Below, piece by piece: positions 13,862-49,461 of a stretch of DNA of 64,000 nt. The notes under the pieces are model-generated. The model searched no databases, was not told where the DNA came from, and saw only the letters and a program-made list of their open reading frames with translations. The translations under genes were made by a program, and so were the position numbers. Numbering within the stretch: position 1 is the first letter of the stretch; every line of letters begins with the position of its first letter. Source of the DNA: a bacterium (GTDB taxonomy: Bacteria; Patescibacteriota; Minisyncoccia; JAHIHE01); contig JAUYBG010000019.1 in NCBI GenBank assembly GCA_030693205.1, positions 14,496 through 78,495 on the forward strand, written 5' to 3'.

Positions 13862-13932
13862 TGCGGGATCGTCTAATGGTAGGACAGCGCCCTTTGAAGG
13901 CGCTTATCATGGTTCGAATCCATGTCCCGCAG
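13862..13932 (+). tRNA. tRNA-Gln (anticodon UUG)
   Basis: Hand-folded cloverleaf: acceptor TGCGGGA/TCCCGCA with U1-A72, anticodon stem GCGCC/GGCGC, loop CTTTGAA, T-arm CATGG-TTCGAAT-CCATG, discriminator G. Confidence 0.8.
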
Positions 13933-14133
13933 CCGCGAAAATATAATCGGATCGTCATATCAACAAGTGCTGAATACGCGCTTGTTTTGTTTTTAACAAG
14001 CCAAAATAAGTTTAAAACTGTTTACAAAAGGGTTAAAATATGCTAATGTTGTAAAGTTAAATGAACGGCAGTTAAAGCTGATTATAGACAAGAAATTTAG
14101 TATATTTAACTAAAATATATCGTTTTATAATTT

Positions 14134-39574: not shown

Positions 39575-40672
39575 ATGGAAGAAATTTTATCTCAGATCAA
39601 GGCATTTCAAAAAAGACTTGGCGATTTGGCGATTATTCTTAATCTTCCTAAACTAAAAGCGGAGATCGTCGGATTAGGGCTGGATACGGAGGATCAGGGT
39701 TTTTGGCAAGACCAGGCGAAAGCGAAAGAAACATTGAAAAAAATCGAATTTTCGAAAAAAGAAGTAAGCGGTTTTGAAAATTTAAAAACCGAGCTCGAGG
39801 AACTTGAGGAATTAATCGCTTTGGTCAAAGAAACGCCGGATAAAGATCTGGAAAAAGATATTAAAAAACGTTTCGCGAGCGTTCAAAAAGAATTTCAGGC
39901 TTTTGAATTTAAGACATTGTTCAAGGAAAAATATGATTCATCCTCGGCGATCATGGCGATCCATGCCGGAGCCGGAGGATCAGACGCGCAGGATTGGGCC
40001 GAAATGCTTCTTCGAATGTATTTGCGGTTTTTTGAAAAAATGGGATTTTCAGCGAAAGTTATTGACGAGAGCAGGGGAAAAGAGGCGGGGGTCAAAAGCG
40101 CGGTAATTGATGTTAGTGGGCCTTACGCTTATGGATATTTGCGTTCGGAAGCCGGAGTGCATCGCTTGGTCAGGATTTCTCCTTTTAACGCGGATGCGAT
40201 GCGGCACACATCGTTTGCCCTGGTTGAGGTTTTGCCGGAGATCGGAGAGATCGCGGAAATAAAGATCGACCCCAAAGATCTCAAAATAGATACTTTTAAA
40301 TCTTCCGGTCCGGGCGGACAGTATGTGAACAAGACCGAATCGGCAATCCGGCTTACGCATATTCCTTCTGGTCTGGTGGTGGCGTCGCAGAGTGAAAGAA
40401 GCCAGGCGCAAAACAGGGAAGTGGCGATGAAGATCTTGCGTGCCAAACTGCATCAAAAATATCTGGAAGCTCGTCAGGCGGAAAAGAAAAAAATTCGCGG
40501 AGAGTTCAAGTCCGCCGAGTGGGGAAATCAGATCCGAAGCTACGTCTTGCATCCTTATAAAATGGTCAAAGATCATCGCACGGGGCACGAAACATCCGAT
40601 ACGATAAAAGTATTAGACGGAGATATAATTGATTTTATCGAAGCGTATTTGCGTTATAGCAGTAAAAAATAA
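39575..40672 (+). CDS. prfB: peptide chain release factor 2 (no programmed frameshift)
   Basis: SPF tripeptide region (SPFNADAMRHTSFA) identifies RF2 rather than RF1; GGQ motif (SGPGGQYVNKTES). Encoded in a single uninterrupted frame from the ATG at 39575. Confidence 0.85.
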   Translation: MEEILSQIKAFQKRLGDLAIILNLPKLKAEIVGLGLDTEDQGFWQDQAKAKETLKKIEFSKKEVSGFENLKTELEELEELIALVKETPDKDLEKDIKKRFASVQKEFQAFEFKTLFKEKYDSSSAIMAIHAGAGGSDAQDWAEMLLRMYLRFFEKMGFSAKVIDESRGKEAGVKSAVIDVSGPYAYGYLRSEAGVHRLVRISPFNADAMRHTSFALVEVLPEIGEIAEIKIDPKDLKIDTFKSSGPGGQYVNKTESAIRLTHIPSGLVVASQSERSQAQNREVAMKILRAKLHQKYLEARQAEKKKIRGEFKSAEWGNQIRSYVLHPYKMVKDHRTGHETSDTIKVLDGDIIDFIEAYLRYSSKK

Positions 40673-40694
40673 GTCCGATCAGTAATAAACATAT

Positions 40695-41378
40695 ATGATT
40701 ATTTTTCAGGCGGTTACGAAAAATTACATGAATGATGTCATGTCTCTCGAAGACATCAACCTGACGATTGATCGCGGGGAGTTTGTTTCAATTGTCGGTC
40801 AATCGGGAGCGGGAAAAACTACGCTTCTCAAATTGATGATTATGGAAGAGAAGCCGACAAAGGGAGAAATATTTTTCGACAAGCTGATGCTAAGCAAGAT
40901 CAAGAGATCGTCCTTACCGACATTGAGGCGCAATATCGGGATGGTTTTCCAGGATTTTAAATTAATAAACACAAAAACTGTGTTTGAAAACGTGGCTTTT
41001 GTGCTGGAGGTTCTCGGCAAAACGGAAATAGAAATAAATAAAAGCGTTTCAACCGCTCTCGATATTGTCGGCATAAAAGAAAAAGACAGCTGTTTTCCTC
41101 ATCAATTGTCAGGCGGCGAGCAGCAAAGGGTGGCGATCGCGCGCGCGATCGTGCATCATCCGATCATTTTGATCGCGGACGAACCGACGGGAAATCTCGA
41201 CGTCTTGAACGGATGGGAGATCGTCAAGCTTCTGGTCAAGATCAATGAGCTGGGAACGACGGTTATTCTCGCCACTCATAATCGGGAGATAGTGAACTCT
41301 CTGAATAAGCGGGTAGTCACTCTGGATAAAGGAAGAATTGTGCAAGACCAGGCGACGAATGGAAAATATATAATATAG
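40695..41378 (+). CDS. ftsE: cell division ATP-binding protein FtsE
   Basis: Walker A (GQSGAGKTTL), ABC signature (LSGGEQQRVAIARA), Walker B (ILIADEPTGNLD); directly upstream of ftsX. Confidence 0.85.
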   Translation: MIIFQAVTKNYMNDVMSLEDINLTIDRGEFVSIVGQSGAGKTTLLKLMIMEEKPTKGEIFFDKLMLSKIKRSSLPTLRRNIGMVFQDFKLINTKTVFENVAFVLEVLGKTEIEINKSVSTALDIVGIKEKDSCFPHQLSGGEQQRVAIARAIVHHPIILIADEPTGNLDVLNGWEIVKLLVKINELGTTVILATHNREIVNSLNKRVVTLDKGRIVQDQATNGKYII

Positions 41379-41486
41379 TAAACAATGTTCAATTTACAAT
41401 TCTCAATTTTCAATGAATGTTCAATGACCAAATTTTCAATTTAGAAATTAGATAACTTAAAATTAGAAATTAAAAAATTAAACTCT

Positions 41487-42428
41487 ATGTTTTTTACAAA
41501 ATTAAAAAGAGTTTTTAAAACCGCTATCGTTAATTTTTGGCGCAATGGCTCGATAAATATTGCCACGACCGGCATTATGACCGTCACTCTTTTGTCGATC
41601 AGTATTTTGGTTATTCTGTCATTTTTAGGGAACAGTTTGGTTGAAAATTTCAAGACCAAGATCGATATCAGCGTTTATTTTATTTCCGAAGCTCCGGAGG
41701 CGGATATTTTAAAAGTTAAAGACGAGGTAGCCGCTTTGCCGGAAGTAAGGGAGGTTTTTTATACATCAAAAGACGAAGCCTGGAATAATTTCAAGGCGCA
41801 GTATTCGGATAATTCGGTTATCAGCCAAGGCATCGGAGAACTGGACGAAAATCCGCTTTTTGCCAGCTTAAGCGTTAAGGCAAAAAATATCGATCAATAT
41901 GGAAAAATCAATGAATTTCTTACCGATCCGCGTTTCAAAGACACGATCAAGAAAGTCAGCTTTGACGAGAATGAAATACAAATTAATAAGTTATCGTTGA
42001 TTACCAAGACTGCCCAGAAAGACGGAGCAATAATTATTTTGGTTTTTGTGATTATCTCGCTTTTCGTGGTTTTTAACGCGATCAGGCTTACGATGTATAA
42101 TTATAAGCAGGAGGTAAAAATCATGAATTTAGTGGGAGCGGGGAAGTGGTATATTCAGCTGCCTTTTATAATTGAAGGGGCTCTTTATGGCGTAATAGGA
42201 AGTTTTCTCTCCATATTGATTCTTGCGGGTATGATCTTTTTGACAAAAGAAGTGAAAAATATTGAAGGTTTTCTGTATGGCGGTTCATTGGCCGGTTTTT
42301 TCCAGGGTTCTTTGACTGAATATTTTAAACATAATTTCTTGCTTATTTTCGGGATACAGCTGGTAGTGGGTGTGGCGATCGGGGTTTTGAGCAGTTTGAT
42401 CGCCTTGCGGAAGTATATGAAAATATAA
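41487..42428 (+). CDS. ftsX: cell division permease FtsX
   Basis: N-terminal TM, large extracytoplasmic loop and three C-terminal TM helices; FtsX-like N-terminal motif (FWRNGSINIATTG). Confidence 0.8.
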   Translation: MFFTKLKRVFKTAIVNFWRNGSINIATTGIMTVTLLSISILVILSFLGNSLVENFKTKIDISVYFISEAPEADILKVKDEVAALPEVREVFYTSKDEAWNNFKAQYSDNSVISQGIGELDENPLFASLSVKAKNIDQYGKINEFLTDPRFKDTIKKVSFDENEIQINKLSLITKTAQKDGAIIILVFVIISLFVVFNAIRLTMYNYKQEVKIMNLVGAGKWYIQLPFIIEGALYGVIGSFLSILILAGMIFLTKEVKNIEGFLYGGSLAGFFQGSLTEYFKHNFLLIFGIQLVVGVAIGVLSSLIALRKYMKI

Positions 42429-42487
42429 AATTAGAAAAAAATAAAACTCGCCCAATAAGCGAGTTTTTGTATTTTTAAAAATGTATT

Positions 42488-43072
42488 TTATGCGCTTGCT
42501 TTTTTCTTTCTTAAATATGCAAAGTAAACGATAAAAATTACGAGATAATTTAACGCTAAAAACCACGGCGTGCCCCACGACAGGCCGTTAATTTTAAAAT
42601 CAGAGATCGGCCAAAGAAATGGGGTTGAATAGAATGCTGAAGAATGAGTGGGAATATCAATTAAAATATGGAGTATCCAGCCGCCCATTTCAATCGGTAA
42701 AATTTGTGAAACGGAGGTGGCGGGAATTTTTCGTTTAAAATAAAGTATTGCCGTCCAAACTATAGCGACGGCAAGAAGAATAACAAAGCTATGGCTGAAA
42801 GAATAAAGCGTTGAGACAAGCAATAAGATAGAATTGAAGTTTTGTTGAGGCGGCTCGATTTTTTCCGGACCCGGCAGATCCGAAATTGAAATTTTCCCGA
42901 ACATTAATTCAATTATAAGCCAGGCGATAGGAATAGCAAAAGCGAAAAGATCGGGAAATACTCCCCAGAATACCGCCAATTTAAGATTCAGCGGTTTTTT
43001 AAGTTTTTCTTTTAGGGTTTTAAATACTGCCCAAGTCCAAAATATATGCGAGAAAAAATTCATAAGATTCAA
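42488..43072 (-). CDS. membrane-bound metal-dependent hydrolase-like protein (YdjM/DUF457-like), putative
   Basis: Polytopic, with conserved His/Asp residues in TM helices (FPDL, HSF, IDIPTHSS). Confidence 0.35.
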   Translation of the reverse strand: MNLMNFFSHIFWTWAVFKTLKEKLKKPLNLKLAVFWGVFPDLFAFAIPIAWLIIELMFGKISISDLPGPEKIEPPQQNFNSILLLVSTLYSFSHSFVILLAVAIVWTAILYFKRKIPATSVSQILPIEMGGWILHILIDIPTHSSAFYSTPFLWPISDFKINGLSWGTPWFLALNYLVIFIVYFAYLRKKKASA

Positions 43073-43266
43073 AAAAGATTATAGAATCAATATACCATTT
43101 TAAGGAAATCTTAACAAGAAATTTATTGCGGCACAGGCCTTGATTTTTTTGCGATTTTTGGGTAGAATAACTAAGTTAAACCCTAATTAGTATTAATTTT
43201 ATTTATATTCGTCTACTGGTAGGAAAGTTTCTTGCTTTGTTCATCGGAAAATGATAGAATTATCTT

Positions 43267-43980
43267 ATGACCATGCAAACAAGAAAAAACCCTTGGAATA
43301 AGGGTTTTACAAAAGAGAACAATCTGTCAGTTTTGAAGATTTCCAAGACGATGAAGGCAAAGAAAATAGATAATTTTGCCGATTGGAGAAAAAAGAACGT
43401 AGAGAAAGGTTTATTAAAAAGCGAATATCCTGATTTTGAAAAAAACGAAGATTTGGCAGAGCTTATAGGGGTTGTTTTAGGTGACGGGCACATACAATCA
43501 TTTCCAAGGACTGAGCGACTAACCATATCGTCACATTCAAAAAACAAGGGGTTTATTAATAGATATGCTCGCCTTATCGAAAAAGTAATCAAAAAAAAAC
43601 CTTATTGCGAGAAAATCAAAAACGCAAATTGTGTACGAATAAGTATTTACGAGAAATTTATTAGCAAAAGACTAAAAATACCGGTAGGAAATCGTAAAGA
43701 TTTAGTTGCTAAAATTCCTGAATGGATAAGTGCCGATAGAAAGGTTTTAATAGGATATTTACGAGGGCTATATGAAGCGGAAGGTTCTTTTTGCGTCCAT
43801 AAGCCGACTTGTACTTATAAATTTTTGTTTAGTAATTGGAATAAAACTTTATTGGATAATGTTTATGGCGCGTTAAAAATTTTAGGTTTTCATCCCCACA
43901 GAAGCACACATCAGATCCAAGTTTCAAAAAAGGAAGAAGTTTATAAAATTAAAGAATTGATAAAATTCAGGCAGTATTAA
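43267..43980 (+). CDS. LAGLIDADG-family homing endonuclease (single-chain, two motifs), free-standing
   Basis: Two LAGLIDADG motifs (LIGVVLGDGHI and LRGLYEAEGSF) about 95 aa apart; 237 aa; not embedded in an intron- or intein-containing gene in this window. Confidence 0.75.
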   Translation: MTMQTRKNPWNKGFTKENNLSVLKISKTMKAKKIDNFADWRKKNVEKGLLKSEYPDFEKNEDLAELIGVVLGDGHIQSFPRTERLTISSHSKNKGFINRYARLIEKVIKKKPYCEKIKNANCVRISIYEKFISKRLKIPVGNRKDLVAKIPEWISADRKVLIGYLRGLYEAEGSFCVHKPTCTYKFLFSNWNKTLLDNVYGALKILGFHPHRSTHQIQVSKKEEVYKIKELIKFRQY

Positions 43981-43984
43981 ATAT

Positions 43985-44055
43985 TGGGAGATCTGCTAAA
44001 GGTAGGCAAGTGGGCTCTGAACCCATTAATCTAGGTTCGATTCCTAGTCTCCCAG
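43985..44055 (+). tRNA. tRNA-Gln (anticodon CUG)
   Basis: Acceptor TGGGAGA/TCTCCCA with U1-A72, anticodon stem GTGGG/CCCAT, loop CTCTGAA, T-arm CTAGG-TTCGATT-CCTAG, discriminator G. Confidence 0.75.
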
Positions 44056-44076
44056 CATTATTTTTAAAAATTATTT

Positions 44077-44784
44077 ATGTTTGTAAATGCTATAAAAATT
44101 GCAAGTAAGGCAATGTTTCCAATATTTCGCGTAGAGCAAGTTACATCTTCGCAAATGATAGTTAATGTGGCGGGTACCGGTTTTTTTATAAGTTCTAATG
44201 GTAATTTTATTTCTGTTGCACATGTTTTTGATAATACTACCAATAATCCGAAATATTTTTATTTTGGAAAGCTACCAACAGATTTACAAAGTCCACCTAT
44301 AGAAATTGAGGAAATTATTAGAGATGATTCAAATGATATTTATATTGGCAGAGTTAAGAAAAAAACGGATACTTTTTTTCGATTATCATCAAAATTAGTT
44401 GATATTGGAAGAACTATTTGTATTGGGGGGTATCCTTTAGCTCAAATTACTAACAATAGTCAGGGTGGATTAGAACTTATGGGGGTTAGAAGATACTTTC
44501 AGCCATCTTTTATTTTAGATTATATAAAAGCTAATTCAGATAATGGTGCAGGAAAAATTCGTCTTCATGATGGTTTTATTGTAAGAGATATTGGACTGTT
44601 TGGAATGAGCGGTGGTCCGGTATTTGATACAACTGGAACTTTAGTAGGTATTCAGGGATCTGTCATGCCTCCACGTCAAAGTACTGGAGCGAATGGACGA
44701 ACTATTTCTGTTGAAAATGCGGTAGTTATAAGAAGTAATTTAGTCTTGGATTTTATTAAACATAGAGGAATTAGGATAAATTAA
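44077..44784 (+). CDS. trypsin-like serine protease (S1 family, Trypsin_2-like)
   Basis: Catalytic triad context: His (FISVAHVF), Asp (DIYIGRV), Ser (GMSGGPVF, cf. GDSGGP). Confidence 0.65.
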   Translation: MFVNAIKIASKAMFPIFRVEQVTSSQMIVNVAGTGFFISSNGNFISVAHVFDNTTNNPKYFYFGKLPTDLQSPPIEIEEIIRDDSNDIYIGRVKKKTDTFFRLSSKLVDIGRTICIGGYPLAQITNNSQGGLELMGVRRYFQPSFILDYIKANSDNGAGKIRLHDGFIVRDIGLFGMSGGPVFDTTGTLVGIQGSVMPPRQSTGANGRTISVENAVVIRSNLVLDFIKHRGIRIN

Positions 44785-44802
44785 TTTTTCTAAAATAAAC
44801 TC

Positions 44803-45054
44803 ATGAAATTAAATGAAGAACAAAAGAATGTAGTAATAACAAAATTATCAAATTTTTTCCGCACCTCTTGCATTATTTGTAATGGTAGCGAGTGGTTATT
44901 AAATGATACCATTTATGAGTTAAGAGAATTTATGGGTGGTAGTTTCATTCTTGGCGAAAAAGTGAGCATTTTTCCTGTTTTAGCTGTTTCGTGTAAGTCG
45001 TGTGGCCATACGCACTACTTTAATGCTATTTTAATTGGAGTAGTAAAAAAATAA
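44803..45054 (+). CDS. small zinc-ribbon protein (83 aa), hypothetical
   Basis: CIICNGSEW ... CKSCGHTHY gives two CxxC pairs. Confidence 0.4.
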   Translation: MKLNEEQKNVVITKLSNFFRTSCIICNGSEWLLNDTIYELREFMGGSFILGEKVSIFPVLAVSCKSCGHTHYFNAILIGVVKK

Positions 45055-45058
45055 GAAA

Positions 45059-45904
45059 ATGGAAAAAACTAAATCTCCTATAACAATTTCGGAAGAAACA
45101 CAAATTGATCGACCAGTTAGCCGGAAATTTTTTTCAATGGATTATAGAGATTGGTTTCGCTTAAAAAAAATGATAAGTAGAATTTCTGACGGACAGAATT
45201 GGTGGAACAGTCAAAATTGGTGGAGTAATTTTGCGTGGTTTACATCTGCGACAAGCATTTCGTCTCTTTACGCTTATATATCTACTCCCGAAATAGATGT
45301 TAATAAAAAATACTTTTTCTATTTTTGTACCATTTTCTCGTTTATAACGACAATTATTTTATTTTTTGTTGGGCGTAAATTTTCACAGTCTAATTTTGCT
45401 TCTAAAAAAGAAATATTGGAAGAAATGAATGAAATAGAACAGGGCGAAAAAGTTACAAAAGATGATAAAGAAATTGTTGTTGAACCGGAAAAACTCTCCG
45501 ATGTTAAAGAAAAAGTTAAAAAACCGATTTCCCTGATTGTTATGAAAGCGGACAAAGAGGATATGCCTTCCGGAATTTCTAAAAACAAAAATTTTGGCGA
45601 TGGTGCGGTGAATATTAATATTTCCGAAATTATTTTAGGATGGAACAGTATTTTGAAAGGAGTTAAAAATTACGACCATTCGGTTAGTGCTTTTTTGAAA
45701 TTATCTACAGCGAAGGAGATTAAGAAAAATTTACTCGTAATCGCCACGCCTTATAAATTTCACGCGGAAAAATTAAGCGAGCCGGCGAATCGTCTGATAA
45801 TCGAAAAAGTGATTGCTGAAGTTTTTCCGAAAATCTTGGGAATGAAAATACAAGTTATTCAGGATGAAAATATAAAAATAACATCTAAAAGGGTTGAGGA
45901 ATAG
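45059..45904 (+). CDS. membrane protein carrying a paralogous copy of the DnaX C-terminal domain
   Basis: Two N-terminal TM helices and a K/E-rich linker. The C-terminal roughly 92 aa (GWNSILKGVKNYDHSVSAFLKLSTAKEIKKNLLVIATPYKFHAEKLSEPANRLIIEKVIAEVFPKILGMKIQVIQDENIKI) are about 60% identical to the C-terminus of DnaX at 11910..13562. Confidence 0.6.
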   Translation: MEKTKSPITISEETQIDRPVSRKFFSMDYRDWFRLKKMISRISDGQNWWNSQNWWSNFAWFTSATSISSLYAYISTPEIDVNKKYFFYFCTIFSFITTIILFFVGRKFSQSNFASKKEILEEMNEIEQGEKVTKDDKEIVVEPEKLSDVKEKVKKPISLIVMKADKEDMPSGISKNKNFGDGAVNINISEIILGWNSILKGVKNYDHSVSAFLKLSTAKEIKKNLLVIATPYKFHAEKLSEPANRLIIEKVIAEVFPKILGMKIQVIQDENIKITSKRVEE

Positions 45905-46075
45905 AAATTAGTATTGTGTTATATGGTGATTGCGTTAAGAAAAGGTGTGTTATTCTCGTCAAATAAGTTCCCCGTCTACGCCGAGGCTTCGGTGGACAGG
46001 CAACATCGTCCCACAAGGCCAGCAAAAATATATATGTCAAACAAAATTTGTAGAATTTTAAATGATAATTAATTT

Positions 46076-46921
46076 ATGAAATCACCTATTCAAGCCAAGA
46101 TAAGAGAAAAAGACCTAAAAGCATATAATCTAGCAAAAAAATTTCTGTTGCGTTTGAAAATAAGCGGAGTTACGGAATCTTTAATACAAAAATATCTTAA
46201 TGCTAGTGCGAGTAAGGCGAGATTTAAAAAAATTGAAGATATTTACGGGAATCTATTATTTTCAGCTCAAAATGCTAATATGAAAGCCGGAGTAATAGGT
46301 AGGTCAATGGAAGGGGGTATAGATAATTTAGGCAAAGTGCTTTTCAATTTTAATCCGGAGTTAGTATTAAAAAAATACCAAAATGATTGGAATTATTTAT
46401 TGGATGATATAAAAAAGAAAGTAAAGCCCAATGGTAAGATAAGACGAAGCTCAAGGAGCATTTGGCCTCAATATTGTAGAACAATATTATCTGCCGCTGA
46501 TTTTATTACTCAATTTGCTACTGCTGATGAATTTTACAAGTGGGTGGACTCTTTTGATAGCGATTATCGCAAGAGGCCGGCCTTGCCGATGATTTTGAGT
46601 TATGAAATAGAAGGTTTTGGTTTTGCTTTGGGTTGCGATTTTCTAAAGGATCTTGGTTATATAAATTTCGGCAAACCGGATGTTCATATAAGGGATATAT
46701 TTGAAGCTTTAAAATTGTGTTCTAAAAACGCAGATGATTATTTATTATTTAAAACAATTGTAAGAATTGCCCAAAATGTAGGAAAATCTCCTTATGAAGT
46801 AGACAAATTATTTTGGCTGATTGGAAGTGGATATTTTTATGACGATCCGCATATTGGAAACGAGGGCAGAACTGGCAGGCATAAAGCCCCATTTATCAGG
46901 TATGCTAAAAAATATTTGTAA
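46076..46921 (+). CDS. hypothetical protein; weak HhH-GPD-like (DNA glycosylase superfamily) signature
   Basis: EIEGFGFALGCDFLKDLGYINFGKPDVHIRDIF resembles the helix-hairpin-helix plus G/P...D(V/T)H..R motif of EndoIII/AlkA-type glycosylases; low certainty. Confidence 0.3.
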   Translation: MKSPIQAKIREKDLKAYNLAKKFLLRLKISGVTESLIQKYLNASASKARFKKIEDIYGNLLFSAQNANMKAGVIGRSMEGGIDNLGKVLFNFNPELVLKKYQNDWNYLLDDIKKKVKPNGKIRRSSRSIWPQYCRTILSAADFITQFATADEFYKWVDSFDSDYRKRPALPMILSYEIEGFGFALGCDFLKDLGYINFGKPDVHIRDIFEALKLCSKNADDYLLFKTIVRIAQNVGKSPYEVDKLFWLIGSGYFYDDPHIGNEGRTGRHKAPFIRYAKKYL

Positions 46922-47031
46922 TTAAGGGGGCGATGTTTTTGAAAGCATATTTTTTAACTAAATAGGTTCCAGCATCGCCCCATAAGACCAATATTATTTA
47001 GAAATTTTAAAATAAATAAAACAATAAATTT

Positions 47032-47661
47032 ATGCCATATTTAGCGGAATTTATAACCGTTGTAGTAGTCCATCTTTTGGCAGTGATGAGTCCCGGCCCT
47101 GATTTTGCCATGATCAGCCGGAATAGTTTGGTGTATTCAAGAAAAACCGGAACATACTCGGCAGTCGGATTGGCTTTGGGTATCTTGGTTCATGTGACGT
47201 ATTCTTTGGTTGGAATCGGTTTTATTATTTCCAAATCAATCGTTTTATTTTCGATTATAAAATTTCTCGGCGCGGGTTATTTGATATTTATCGGTTATAA
47301 ATCTTTAAAAGCAAAACCGCATAAATTAAGCGCGGATCAATTATCGGAAAAAAATAATATGGACAAATTCGCCGCGATCAAAATGGGATTTTTAACCAAT
47401 GCCTTGAATCCCAAAGCGACTTTGTTTTTCTTGAGTTTATTTACTCAGGTCATCAGCAAAGAAACGCCTTTATTGATCCAAGTATTTTACGGCCTGGAAA
47501 TGGTCACGATGACTTTTATTTGGTTTTCAATAGTGGCGTCCGTTTTATCTCATAGCTTGGTGCAAGAAAAATTTGCCTCAGTGCATCATAGGATCGAAAA
47601 ATTTTTCGGCGTGATATTGATCGCATTGGGGATCAAAGTCGCCCTATCGAATTCACGATAA
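47032..47661 (+). CDS. LysE/RhtB-family amino-acid exporter
   Basis: Six TM helices with the N-terminal LysE signature (VVVHLLAVMSPGPDFAMI). Confidence 0.7.
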   Translation: MPYLAEFITVVVVHLLAVMSPGPDFAMISRNSLVYSRKTGTYSAVGLALGILVHVTYSLVGIGFIISKSIVLFSIIKFLGAGYLIFIGYKSLKAKPHKLSADQLSEKNNMDKFAAIKMGFLTNALNPKATLFFLSLFTQVISKETPLLIQVFYGLEMVTMTFIWFSIVASVLSHSLVQEKFASVHHRIEKFFGVILIALGIKVALSNSR

Positions 47662-47668
47662 ATACTAT

Positions 47669-49441
47669 ATGGAAAATCCGTTAATCTATCTTCTCCGCAA
47701 AATGTGGCAATATTCCGGCAATAATCGCCGAACTGTAATTTTGTATATTTTGTTTTCTGCTTTTGCCACTCTCCTCGGTTCTCTTGATGCGGTGATCATC
47801 GGCATATTCTTAAATACAATACAGACTGAGGGAGTGCGCAAAGAGAGTTTGCCCCATTTGCTTTTTTTATTGGGACTTTTGCCGGTTCTTGAAATCGTAT
47901 TTTGGGCATTTCATGGAACATCCCGCGTAAAAGAGAATCGGAATGCTTTTTTTGTCAGGACTAATTATAAGAATTATCTTCTGCAGGGTACGATGGCGCT
48001 CCCGATGGAATGGCATACGGATCATCATTCCGGCGATACGATAGACAAGATAGAGAAAGGAACGGGAGCTCTTTTTAATTTTTCCGAAAGAACTTATGAG
48101 ATGATACAGACGTTCATTCTTTTGACAATAGCTTTTATTGTCATGTTCTTTTTCGATCCGTTCGCGGGCGGCGCGGCTTTGGTGTTCAGTTTGTTTACTT
48201 TTTATGTCATCGGTTTGTTCGATAAAAAGCTTATACCCGGCTATATACAGGTAAACCGGATAGAGAATACCATTTCCGCTAAAATTTTTGACGCTTTAAG
48301 CAATGTGACTTCGGTGATCATTCTCCGGGTTGAGCCTCTTATTTTGAAATCTATCGATGGTTTTATTAAAAAGCCGTATGAGCGATATAATAAAAATATC
48401 AAATTAAATGAATGGAAATGGTTTTTTGCTTCCATTTTGGGAAGGCTTACAGTTGTTCTTGTTATCGGCATATATCTTTATACTCATATAGCTGCAGGCA
48501 CGATCCTAGCCGGAACAGTTTATATTCTTTATAGTTATACAAATCAGATACGGGAAACTTTTTTTAGATTCGCTTTTCTTTACAATGATATTGTCCGCTA
48601 TCGCGCCTCGGTGACCAACACCGAAGAATTATCCAATGATTTTCGGGGTGCGGCTTTATTGGAGGAAAAACATTTGCCTAAAACTTGGTCGGGATTGGCG
48701 ATAAAAAATCTGTCTTTTTCTTATCATGCCCGGGATGGGGCGGATCTGCACTTGGATGATATAAATCTGAAGATTAAGAAAGGCGAACGTGTTGCATTGA
48801 TCGGGGAAAGCGGGGGAGGCAAGAGCACTTTTCTCAGACTTATGCGGGATCTATATCATCCTAAAACGCTTACGCTTGTCATAGACGGAAAAGAAGCTCC
48901 AGGAGGGTTCAGTGAGATCAGTGATTCGATCTCTCTTATTCCCCAGGATCCGGAAATATTTGCGACGACTATACGGGAAAATATTACGCTTGGGGTTGAA
49001 TATACCGATCAGCACATACAGGCATTTACCGACATGGCGCGTTTTACGGAGGTTTTTGAGAAACTGCCGAAAGGCCTCGAGTCTTCGATCGTGGAAAAAG
49101 GCGTGAATCTGAGCGGCGGAGAGAAACAGCGCCTGGCGCTGGCGCGCGGTCTTCTGGCCTCGGTCGATAAAGAAATAGTGCTACTGGATGAGCCGACAAG
49201 CAGTGTAGATTTTCAAAATGAACTTGCAGTTTATCAGAATATTTTTTCCGCTTTTTCGAGAAAAACGATCATTTCTTCCATTCACCGGCTTCATTTGCTT
49301 TCTTTGTTCGATACTGTTTATTTCTTTGAAGGCGGCAAGATCATAGCGCATGGATCTTTTGGCGAACTTAAGAAAAAATCTTCCGAATTCCAGAAGTTAT
49401 GGAAAAAATATATCCGAACAAGAGATGCTTCGGGGTCATAA
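47669..49441 (+). CDS. ABC transporter, fused permease/ATP-binding exporter (MsbA-like)
   Basis: Six-TM N-terminal domain; Walker A (GESGGGKST), ABC signature (LSGGEKQRLALARG), Walker B (LLDEPTSSVD). Confidence 0.8.
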   Translation: MENPLIYLLRKMWQYSGNNRRTVILYILFSAFATLLGSLDAVIIGIFLNTIQTEGVRKESLPHLLFLLGLLPVLEIVFWAFHGTSRVKENRNAFFVRTNYKNYLLQGTMALPMEWHTDHHSGDTIDKIEKGTGALFNFSERTYEMIQTFILLTIAFIVMFFFDPFAGGAALVFSLFTFYVIGLFDKKLIPGYIQVNRIENTISAKIFDALSNVTSVIILRVEPLILKSIDGFIKKPYERYNKNIKLNEWKWFFASILGRLTVVLVIGIYLYTHIAAGTILAGTVYILYSYTNQIRETFFRFAFLYNDIVRYRASVTNTEELSNDFRGAALLEEKHLPKTWSGLAIKNLSFSYHARDGADLHLDDINLKIKKGERVALIGESGGGKSTFLRLMRDLYHPKTLTLVIDGKEAPGGFSEISDSISLIPQDPEIFATTIRENITLGVEYTDQHIQAFTDMARFTEVFEKLPKGLESSIVEKGVNLSGGEKQRLALARGLLASVDKEIVLLDEPTSSVDFQNELAVYQNIFSAFSRKTIISSIHRLHLLSLFDTVYFFEGGKIIAHGSFGELKKKSSEFQKLWKKYIRTRDASGS

Positions 49442-49461
49442 TTTTTTAATATTCCGATAGT

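Follow-up and report, generated by a model that had tools for sequence, protein, structure and literature searches.

A LAGLIDADG endonuclease gene joined to tRNA-Gln(CUG) is probably a homing cassette of Parcubacteria tRNA-Gln(CUG) genes

The stretch of DNA from an uncultured, ultra-small patescibacterium analyzed here (the window; 64,000 nucleotides (nt); assembly GCA_030693205.1, contig JAUYBG010000019.1, positions 14,496 to 78,495) contains a gene for a protein with two LAGLIDADG motifs directly upstream of a glutamine transfer RNA (tRNA) gene, tRNA-Gln(CUG). We conclude that this open reading frame (ORF) and the tRNA together probably form a cassette that encodes an active, I-DmoI-like homing endonuclease, moves horizontally and is specific for the tRNA-Gln(CUG) genes of Parcubacteria (Patescibacteria), with both the nuclease activity and the target site being predicted. 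The cassette consists of a relic of a tRNA D-arm, an extended -10 promoter, an ORF for an I-DmoI-like monomeric LAGLIDADG protein, a gap of 2-6 nt, and a complete tRNA-Gln(CUG) with a different D-stem. The coordinates of these parts in the window are given in Table 1.

The comparison set comprised 165 related loci. In the first five contigs, which represent three unrelated gene contexts, tRNA-Gln(CUG) was always found 0-4 nt past the stop codon of the ORF. A scan of one genome per GTDB species then confirmed 125 loci, 80 of which were kept; the labels of their metagenome-assembled genomes include Nealson-, Portnoy-, Azam-, Yanofsky-, Kaiser-, Niyogi-, Uhr-, Nomura-, Yonath-, Wolfe-, Taylor- and Jorgensenbacteria, as well as others. 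With the window included, tRNA-Gln(CUG) follows the homolog at a distance of -11 to +39 nt (mode 2-6) in 81 of the 81 loci with enough sequence, which span at least three unrelated gene contexts, the five loci outside this count lying on contigs that end less than 62 nt past the stop codon. The tRNAs of the cassettes diverge widely among the loci and carry compensatory changes in their stems. The linkage to the tRNA is the defining feature of these loci and not a coincidence, and the intact tRNA belongs to the same unit as the ORF.

The anatomy of the insertion is seen in the alignment of an occupied locus, L009, with an empty one, L107, the FtsX proteins of which are 95% identical. The two loci share 88.7% nucleotide identity up to the FtsX stop codon. 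L107 then continues with its own intact tRNA (TGCCAGGTCATCTAGTGGTAGGATACG...), and at the same spot L009 has a 21-nt fragment (TGCCAGATCGGCTAATTGGTA) resembling the 5' part of the L107 tRNA. Past this fragment, L009 carries unrelated sequence with TATAAT and ATG, the ORF, and a complete tRNA-Gln(CUG), the acceptor stem of which differs (TGGGGAG...CTCCCCA). As the 5' relic of a tRNA lies upstream of the ORF, the ORF sits inside a former tRNA gene, and the second, foreign copy of the tRNA restores the function of the disrupted one.

The relic is also present in the window, where its 16-nt D-arm part differs by one mismatch from TCGTCTAATGGTAGGA, with 0.00 matches expected by chance. When scored with a position weight matrix of tRNA positions 1-25, the window relic exceeds the 99th percentile of the controls, as does the DNA 5' of the ORF at 53/85 loci. 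The strict D-arm motif TA[AG][TC]GGTAG was found no more than 300 nt 5' of the ORF in 58/85 loci versus 0/255 control regions. All relics share the end point GGTAG(GA), which is followed by A-rich sequence, a TGnTATAAT-like box and, in most loci, ATG 6-8 nt further on. The D-arm part of the relic (TCGTCTAATGGTAG) is conserved at 69-100%, compared with 33-60% for the acceptor part. It is unlikely that the relic is conserved as a -35 element, because it occurs at two distances from the -10 box (~10 and ~20 nt).

The original prediction, which was made from the sequence of the window alone, had described the ORF as free-standing and placed it outside any intron or intein. The second statement stood: the search with Rfam models revealed no group I or group II intron in positions 40000-48000 even at E <= 1, the tRNA being the sole match, the downstream tRNA is complete and uninterrupted, and the ORF has its own start and stop codons. 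The word free-standing needs qualification, since the ORF sits within a disrupted tRNA-Gln gene and the adjacent intact tRNA is part of the unit; the 16-nt D-arm relic had been overlooked. Neither a 3' remainder of the disrupted tRNA nor a second copy of the tRNA 3' end was found within the window.

For the identification of empty sites, an alignment of ORF-linked FtsX proteins was used to fetch 80 FtsX loci from metagenome contigs. The tRNA-Gln(CUG) gene was found 3' of FtsX in 44 of them; among these sites, with the synteny PrfB-FtsE-FtsX in common, 43 were empty, their tRNA being uninterrupted, and one was occupied (L095). In many empty sites the tRNA begins 6-100 nt past the FtsX stop codon, and a tblastn search of the empty sites for a degraded ORF at E <= 10 yielded nothing credible. 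By FtsX similarity, occupied and empty loci are mixed with each other: 16 of the 33 occupied loci have their nearest FtsX in an empty locus. Both states were seen in the sample JGI 3300020171, where contig L169 is occupied and contig L124 is empty. The ORF is thus present or absent at one fixed site, always at the 5' edge of tRNA-Gln(CUG). The earlier suggestion of an invasive element was borne out by this comparison with relatives lacking the ORF, in which occupied and empty alleles alternate among close relatives.

One empty site deserves separate mention. The tRNA-Gln(CUG) of L091 (5319-5392), with an FtsX 81% identical to that of the occupied locus L038, shares its acceptor stem and 3' end with the cassette tRNA of L038 but has a different, non-canonical D-arm. 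The endonuclease gene could have been removed from L091 through recombination of the relic with the 5' part of the tRNA.

The protein encoded by the ORF was matched by the Pfam family PF14528 (LAGLIDADG_3) in two stretches (E 2.3e-9, 37.8 bits versus a gathering score of 22.5). The concern that its motifs might be degenerate was not substantiated: Asp73 (LGDG) is invariant in the alignments of both 12 and 40 homologs, Glu172 (EAEG) is invariant among the 12 and conserved in at least 90% of the 40, and most residues of the beta-strands following each motif are invariant as well. No sequence match to solved structures was found at E <= 1, and a fold search was used instead. The AlphaFold2 model built from 40 homologs (predicted local distance difference test score (pLDDT) 92, predicted template-modelling score (pTM) 0.83) has a two-domain LAGLIDADG fold with the expected order of secondary structures (alpha-beta-beta-alpha-beta-beta-alpha, twice). 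Its best Foldseek match was I-DmoI (E ~2e-8), followed by I-Tsp061I, PI-PfuI, bI3 maturase and I-SceI; for I-DmoI, I-Tsp061I and PI-PfuI the target-normalised template-modelling (TM) scores were 0.60-0.66 at 19-21% identity. Like I-DmoI, I-Tsp061I and the endonuclease domain of PI-PfuI, the cassette enzyme has a compact single-chain fold of two domains with an acidic residue ending each motif.

The enzymes of the I-DmoI type are encoded within introns of ribosomal RNA (rRNA) genes or within inteins, their targets being rRNA or protein genes, whereas the cassette enzyme is tied to a tRNA gene and has no intron or intein around it. It also differs from them by an additional N-terminal region of ~60 amino acids (aa), which is conserved throughout the family (PWNKGFTKE..S..KIS.T.K..K.DNF..WR) and which may resemble the NUMOD3 DNA-binding motifs of other homing endonucleases. 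Long forms of ~296 aa (P0003, P0120, L009, L021, L038 and L060) carry a further N-terminal extension of ~60 aa, and there is also a form of intermediate length (~259 aa). The longer homologs (~259 and ~296 aa) add a CxxC...HxxxH segment, for which there is a weak ROS/MucR-like zinc-finger match that stays below the Pfam cutoff (E 7e-4). In all three length forms the tRNA relic lies directly 5' of the form's own start codon.

A search of 5.8 billion proteins gave 990 relatives (protein clusters, E <= 0.001). The best 120 of these 990 are 58-100% identical to the window protein, and the named ones among them come from Patescibacteria, Nealsonbacteria and Paceibacterota. The exhaustive profile search showed that the family is tight: E <= 1e-30 was reached by only 53 clusters at 50% identity, many of which are fragments, and all others were ordinary LAGLIDADG proteins scoring ~100 bits or less. 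The IMG/VR scan for phage carriage contained no member of the family, only a LAGLIDADG protein with 27% identity. The name WhiA, under which the Joint Genome Institute (JGI) lists some homologs, was rejected, given the lack of an HTH_WhiA match, the conserved acidic residues and the length of 237 aa; WhiA_N matched a long homolog only at E 0.006, below its cutoff.

Several observations bear on the movement of the cassette. In the pairs L009/L107, L039/L103 and L019/L128, the tRNA carried by the cassette is not the same as the one resident in the close empty relative, as in co-conversion. The proportion of synonymous differences is lower in the ORF than in the flanking core genes in four of five genome pairs (0.38 versus 0.51-0.58 for the window and its closest relative); with the caveats of saturation and base composition, this suggests that the cassettes have a more recent common ancestor than their hosts. 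Discordant pairs were found in both directions, with an endonuclease identity of 81% against 56% for FtsX in L080/L082, and an FtsE identity of 76% against 58% for the endonuclease in L047/L080. The correlation of pairwise identities between the tRNA and the protein was ~0, the tRNA being too short to be informative about co-evolution.

The D-arm differs between the two kinds of sites. The canonical D-arm (CGTCTA..GGTAGGAC), which is that of the relics and, for example, of the empty-site tRNA-Gln(CUG) in L128 or L103 (TGCGGGATCGTCTAATGGTAGGACACATGCCTCTG...), was present in only 9/80 cassette tRNAs versus 25/43 empty-site tRNAs (Fisher p = 8e-8). To judge from these alignments, the difference in haplotype is a sign of possible target immunity. 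A single immunity nucleotide was rejected as its basis: in a column-by-column comparison of 80 occupied and 43 empty alleles no tRNA position reached p < 1e-3, and only the D-stem haplotype differed.

The intergenic position of the ORF fits intronless homing, and the break points of the relics point to the D-arm region of tRNA-Gln(CUG) as the putative target, a D-arm shared by the host tRNA-Gln(UUG). We propose that the enzyme would cut the common allele of tRNA-Gln(CUG) at the D-loop or immediately 3' of it, at about tRNA positions 20-26, where the relics end (GGTAG(GA)|AAAA). The break would be repaired from a cassette-bearing copy, in which the D-arm relic would provide the homology arm on the left and the 3' two-thirds of the tRNA would provide that on the right. 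Such repair would copy in the promoter, the ORF and the new 5' part of the tRNA, and co-conversion through the rest of the tRNA would keep its stems paired. The old 5' fragment would stay behind as a dead relic, and the new tRNA, probably uncut because of its altered D-stem, would restore the essential function. The tRNA would probably be co-transcribed with the ORF and released by ribonuclease P (RNase P) 4 nt past the stop codon, so that the ORF would occupy the leader of the tRNA.

As the target gene itself would supply both homology arms, the cassette could enter a tRNA-Gln(CUG) gene whatever its genomic context, and such independence of context would explain the invariant pair of ORF and tRNA with differing neighbours. 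By bringing a spare, differently spelled tRNA, the cassette can occupy an essential RNA gene without an intron. The conserved relic might be an operator of the enzyme as well.

A number of points weigh against an active homing cassette. We infer the target site from the junctions only, and the cleavage is likewise predicted from sequence. The D-arm part of the relic is kept while the acceptor part decays, which calls for an extra role such as a homology arm, a half-site or an operator, and for recombination of the RecA type a left arm of ~17 nt is short. Occupied and empty alleles are not told apart by any single tRNA position, and nine of the 80 cassette tRNAs have the canonical D-arm. Moreover, the tRNA-Gln(UUG) of the window (13862-13934) has the exact canonical D-arm TCGTCTAATGGTAGGAC, so the D-arm alone is not the whole recognition site and the anticodon stem and loop must contribute; the anticodon stem, in turn, varies among the empty sites. 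If the enzyme is active, tRNA-Gln(UUG) must be protected by something other than its D-arm. Distant hosts yielded no nearly identical cassettes, and protein identity between loci reached 85% at most, so that no very recent long-range transfer was caught. Finally, the conservation of the ORF at the level of FtsE and the lack of any pseudogene also fit a host function.

The last point belongs to the explanation we had initially favoured, given the identity of 58-86% across many candidate phyla and the FtsE-level conservation, namely that of a core or domesticated gene: a LAGLIDADG protein with a host function, such as a DNA-binding regulator or a repair nuclease, that stands beside tRNA-Gln(CUG) only through a shared promoter. 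The median identity of the endonuclease is 57%, compared with 57.5% for FtsE, 50% for PrfB and 40% for FtsX in the same genome pairs. The ratio of nonsynonymous to synonymous substitution rates (dN/dS) in five genome pairs is 0.04-0.15 (0.14 for the window ORF and its closest relative), which indicates purifying selection on the ORF. All 86 copies of the ORF are intact, although the search patterns required conserved peptides and would have missed decayed copies. The 80 loci of the GTDB scan each lie on a different contig, the upstream synteny (PrfB-FtsE-FtsX-(PyrG) 5' of the ORF) is kept in 38/86 loci, and some members bear the WhiA label mentioned above.

The protein distances do correlate positively with those of the host genes, but the congruence (Spearman 0.36-0.39) is clearly below that between host genes (0.65 for FtsX and FtsE). 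The catalytic acidic residues are kept, unlike in WhiA, the helix-turn-helix domain of which is missing, and the relic of a disrupted tRNA marks an insertion event. What overturned this explanation was the FtsX-anchored scan, after which it was dropped as the main one: just 1 of the 44 syntenic tRNA-Gln(CUG) loci carries the ORF, and a genome with a 95% identical FtsX has the intact tRNA at the same spot and no ORF. We now regard domestication, which the original prediction had offered as an alternative, as unlikely in view of this sporadic distribution.

It is also rather improbable that the ORF is a stranded, immobile former homing endonuclease, retained since its promoter drives the only tRNA-Gln(CUG) gene and its deletion would be harmful. 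It is true that no promoter of the tRNA is evident in the 4-nt gap, where the sole two-hexamer match would start inside the tRNA, that no very recent transfer across lineages was detected, and that embedded promoters favouring the retention of endonuclease genes are known in the T4 phage (PMC2988022). Dependence on the promoter would maintain that promoter but place no constraint on the reading frame, whereas the ORF evolves under purifying selection and its acidic residues are conserved. The direct repeats formed by the relic and the 5' part of the tRNA offer an easy route to clean deletion. The lower synonymous divergence of the ORF in four of five pairs and the interspersion of occupied and empty alleles likewise argue for a homing cassette that still moves.

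The extent of the cassette was delimited independently by its closest relative (protein P0002, 86% identical; contigs L167-L169). The conserved unit is shared with L168 at 87.6% identity, starts at the D-arm relic and ends 17 nt past the tRNA, and the DNA on both sides is non-homologous; the cassette tRNA is identical in the window and in this relative. As the block is shared and its flanks are unrelated, the unit is 864 bp long, and it encodes only the LAGLIDADG protein and the tRNA. In view of this content it is very improbable that the ORF and the tRNA are cargo of an integrase-mobilised island with the tRNA gene as its attachment (att) site and the relic as an att duplication: integrase-mediated integration typically leaves the inserted DNA flanked by tRNA fragments, the tRNA 3' end overlaps with genes for large serine recombinases in seven loci, and the DNA beyond it is hypervariable, but these recombinases lie past the other side of the tRNA in only 7/86 loci and are absent from the window, where there is neither a second tRNA 3' end nor any repeat flanking the 5.4-kb block described below, and the relic is a 5' fragment with a fixed end point in the D-loop, not a 3' att core.

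Table 1. Parts of the tRNA-Gln(CUG)-linked cassette and their coordinates in the window
Feature	Coordinates	Strand	Remarks
tRNA-Gln 5' relic	43202..43226	+	Left end of the cassette; acceptor-stem part 43202-43208 decayed; D-arm part 43209-43224 (TCGTCTACTGGTAGGA) kept, then AAAG
Extended -10 promoter-like box TGATAGAAT	43252..43260	+	Read directly from the sequence; 6 nt 5' of ATG; putative function
LAGLIDADG endonuclease ORF	43267..43980	+	Conserved N-terminal region of ~60 aa, then two LAGLIDADG domains
LAGLIDADG motif 1 (LAELIGVVLGDG), aa 63-74	43453..43488	+	Codon of Asp73 at the catalytic position, 43483-43485
LAGLIDADG motif 2 (YLRGLYEAEG), aa 164-173	43756..43785	+	Codon of Glu172 at the catalytic position, 43780-43782
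Cassette tRNA-Gln(CUG), complete	43985..44056	+	D-stem non-canonical: TCTGCTAAAGGTAGGCA vs relic/canonical TCGTCTAATGGTAGGAC
Conserved unit: D-arm relic, promoter, ORF, tRNA and 17 nt	43210..44073	+	blastn of the window vs L168 and L167

The remaining details of the window locus agree with the original description of a 237-aa ORF with two LAGLIDADG motifs, located 4 nt before tRNA-Gln(CUG) and behind a membrane-protein gene, which was confirmed using Pfam, ARAGORN and Rfam (57.6 bits for the tRNA). The ORF starts with ATG, just downstream of an in-frame stop codon at 43255-43257. Its 5' neighbour on the minus strand (42488..43072) encodes a YdjM-type membrane protein, and FtsX, FtsE, PrfB and tRNA-Thr(CGU) are located farther 5'. 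At 43252-43269 in the window, and at the equivalent positions of most homologous loci, a TGnTATAAT box lies 6-8 nt 5' of ATG with no Shine-Dalgarno sequence. The generic two-hexamer scan missed this box because it has no -35 element. A promoter-like box this near to ATG, with no Shine-Dalgarno sequence, implies a putatively leaderless or near-leaderless endonuclease mRNA, and the mRNA started from the extended -10 box probably also carries the tRNA.

The C-termini of FtsX and of the endonuclease look alike: FtsX (42405-42428 in the window) ends with ..RKY(L/M)Kx-stop and the LAGLIDADG ORF (43966-43980) with ..FR(Q/K)Y-stop, each a few nt before tRNA-Gln(CUG), at the empty and the occupied sites, respectively. 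We considered that the FRxY-stop codons could serve as a -10 box of the tRNA or be derived from the C-terminus of FtsX (RKYLK); this is probably a coincidence and was treated as such. The codons of Arg and Tyr vary synonymously across the loci, so the constraint acts on the protein. Attenuation via CAG codons was also rejected, as Gln236 is not conserved (Lys, Asn or His in homologs).

The surroundings of the cassette in the window differ from those in its closest relative on both sides. On the left, a GNAT acetyltransferase gene lies between the YdjM gene and the cassette in L168 (5103-5582), and the window has only 34 nt there (43176-43209); this difference amounts to a second indel, immediately next to the left end of the cassette. 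On the right, the window and contig L170, which is identical to it, have a block of 5.39 kb (44074-49460) that L167-L169 lack, the synteny resuming at a Ser-hydrolase gene. The block encodes a trypsin-like protease, an 83-aa Zn-ribbon-like ORF, a 281-aa membrane protein with a DnaX_C-like end, another ORF of 281 aa, LysE and an ABC exporter. The guanine-plus-cytosine fraction is 0.32-0.34 across 43.1-47.0 kb, compared with 0.36-0.46 in the flanks. No flanking or att repeats and no recombinase were found for the block at 44074-49460.

The original prediction also held that the endonuclease gene heads an accessory block whose mobility it could promote. The gene does stand at the edge of a variable block of lower GC content that is absent from the closest relative; there is, however, no sign that the endonuclease mobilises the protease, Zn-ribbon and DnaX_C block, which has no flanking repeats. 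The variability 3' of the tRNA is better explained by an integration hot spot, as serine recombinase genes overlap the 3' end of the tRNA in seven other loci.

These large serine recombinase genes (Resolvase, Recombinase and Zn_ribbon_recom domains) run antisense to the cassette and are located in L035 (3712-5358, minus strand), L033 (3736-5259, minus), L072 (1383-2996, minus), L028, L030, L031 and L043. Their last codons (..LDSNQ..) extend into the T-arm and 3' end of the tRNA. Relatives of the same recombinase family are found farther 3' in L059 and L062. This suggests that the serine recombinases belong to separate integrative elements with this tRNA as their attachment site. Meanwhile, small GIY-YIG ORFs (~79-105 aa; Pfam E 7e-22 for the L002 example) are found near the cassette, 3' of the tRNA in L002/L003 (4826-5065), L039, L067 and L016, and 5' in L013; they may represent a second type of nuclease gathering at the hot spot.

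About 18 of the 80 GTDB contigs (L006-L085) stop inside tRNA-Gln(CUG) or within ~100 nt beyond it, and in 52/67 loci the first gene 3' of the tRNA lacks homologs at all other loci. The site is a hypervariable junction where assemblies break, with polymorphism at the strain level as one possible cause.

Homing endonucleases with tRNA genes as targets and insertions with a duplicate of the displaced segment have precedents in other systems. I-Ssp6803I, the endonuclease of a group I intron in the cyanobacterial tRNA-fMet gene, resembles the cassette enzyme in its choice of a tRNA gene; it is a PD-(D/E)XK enzyme, borne by an intron inserted in the anticodon loop, and no gene duplication is involved. 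Endonuclease ORFs of fungal mitochondria (e.g., in Allomyces atp6) insert at the ends of genes together with a foreign duplicate of the displaced segment, and the original is left as a pseudogene fragment. They concern 3' segments of protein-coding genes and are mostly of the GIY-YIG type, whereas the cassette supplies a whole tRNA and leaves a 5' relic.

The free-standing endonucleases of T4 spread by "intronless homing", in which intergenic genes are propagated by double-strand-break repair that co-converts neighbouring markers (PMC2988022). One of them, SegB, sits among the T4 tRNA genes and cuts the tRNA region of phages lacking SegB (review PMC2988022, citing Brok-Volchanskaya et al. 2008). 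In its proposed mode of action the cassette resembles these endonucleases, SegB above all. SegB is a GIY-YIG enzyme that needs flanking genome homology between co-infecting phages; the cassette, by contrast, encodes a LAGLIDADG enzyme, resides in a cellular genome, apparently carries both homology arms (the target relic and the replacement tRNA), and recurs in unrelated contexts.

The LAGLIDADG enzymes reported in the candidate phyla radiation (CPR) are those in rRNA insertions (PMC11270868, PMC11809585). Such rRNA inserts are frequent in CPR, so the earlier statement that bacterial LAGLIDADG enzymes are uncommon does not hold for this group (PMC11270868). The enzymes of these inserts (e.g., I-ShaI; PMC11270868) share with the cassette enzyme the radiation, the superfamily and the preference for conserved RNA genes; they lie within 16S or 23S rRNA insertions that are removed from the RNA, whereas in the cassette the interrupted gene is replaced by a duplicate and not spliced. 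The main text of PMC11270868 makes no mention of tRNA, and our full-text literature searches found no description of a LAGLIDADG cassette linked to tRNA-Gln.

We therefore propose, tentatively and with slightly less than even confidence, that the cassette represents a previously undescribed, intronless way of colonising an essential structural-RNA gene. The target's own sequence would provide both arms, one as the conserved relic and the other as the cleavage-resistant replacement tRNA, making the process independent of context. Throughout Parcubacteria (at least 125 species genomes), it would drive alleles of tRNA-Gln(CUG) to be replaced horizontally and would leave 5' fragments of tRNA behind.

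If true, this would be a third route for homing endonucleases into essential genes, beside introns and inteins, namely that of bringing a spare copy of the target. It would explain the invariant pair of gene and tRNA in many uncultured Parcubacteria, which is now annotated as "LAGLIDADG family" or, wrongly, as "WhiA", and a compact meganuclease scaffold (232-237 aa) would come with a predicted natural recognition site. In practical terms, it draws attention to a site where assemblies repeatedly break and to a tRNA pseudogene overlooked by annotators. For the biology of these bacteria, the cassette would offer a mechanism for the horizontal replacement and sequence diversification of a tRNA gene, as seen in the D-stem variants, and would show mobile elements generating tRNA gene fragments.

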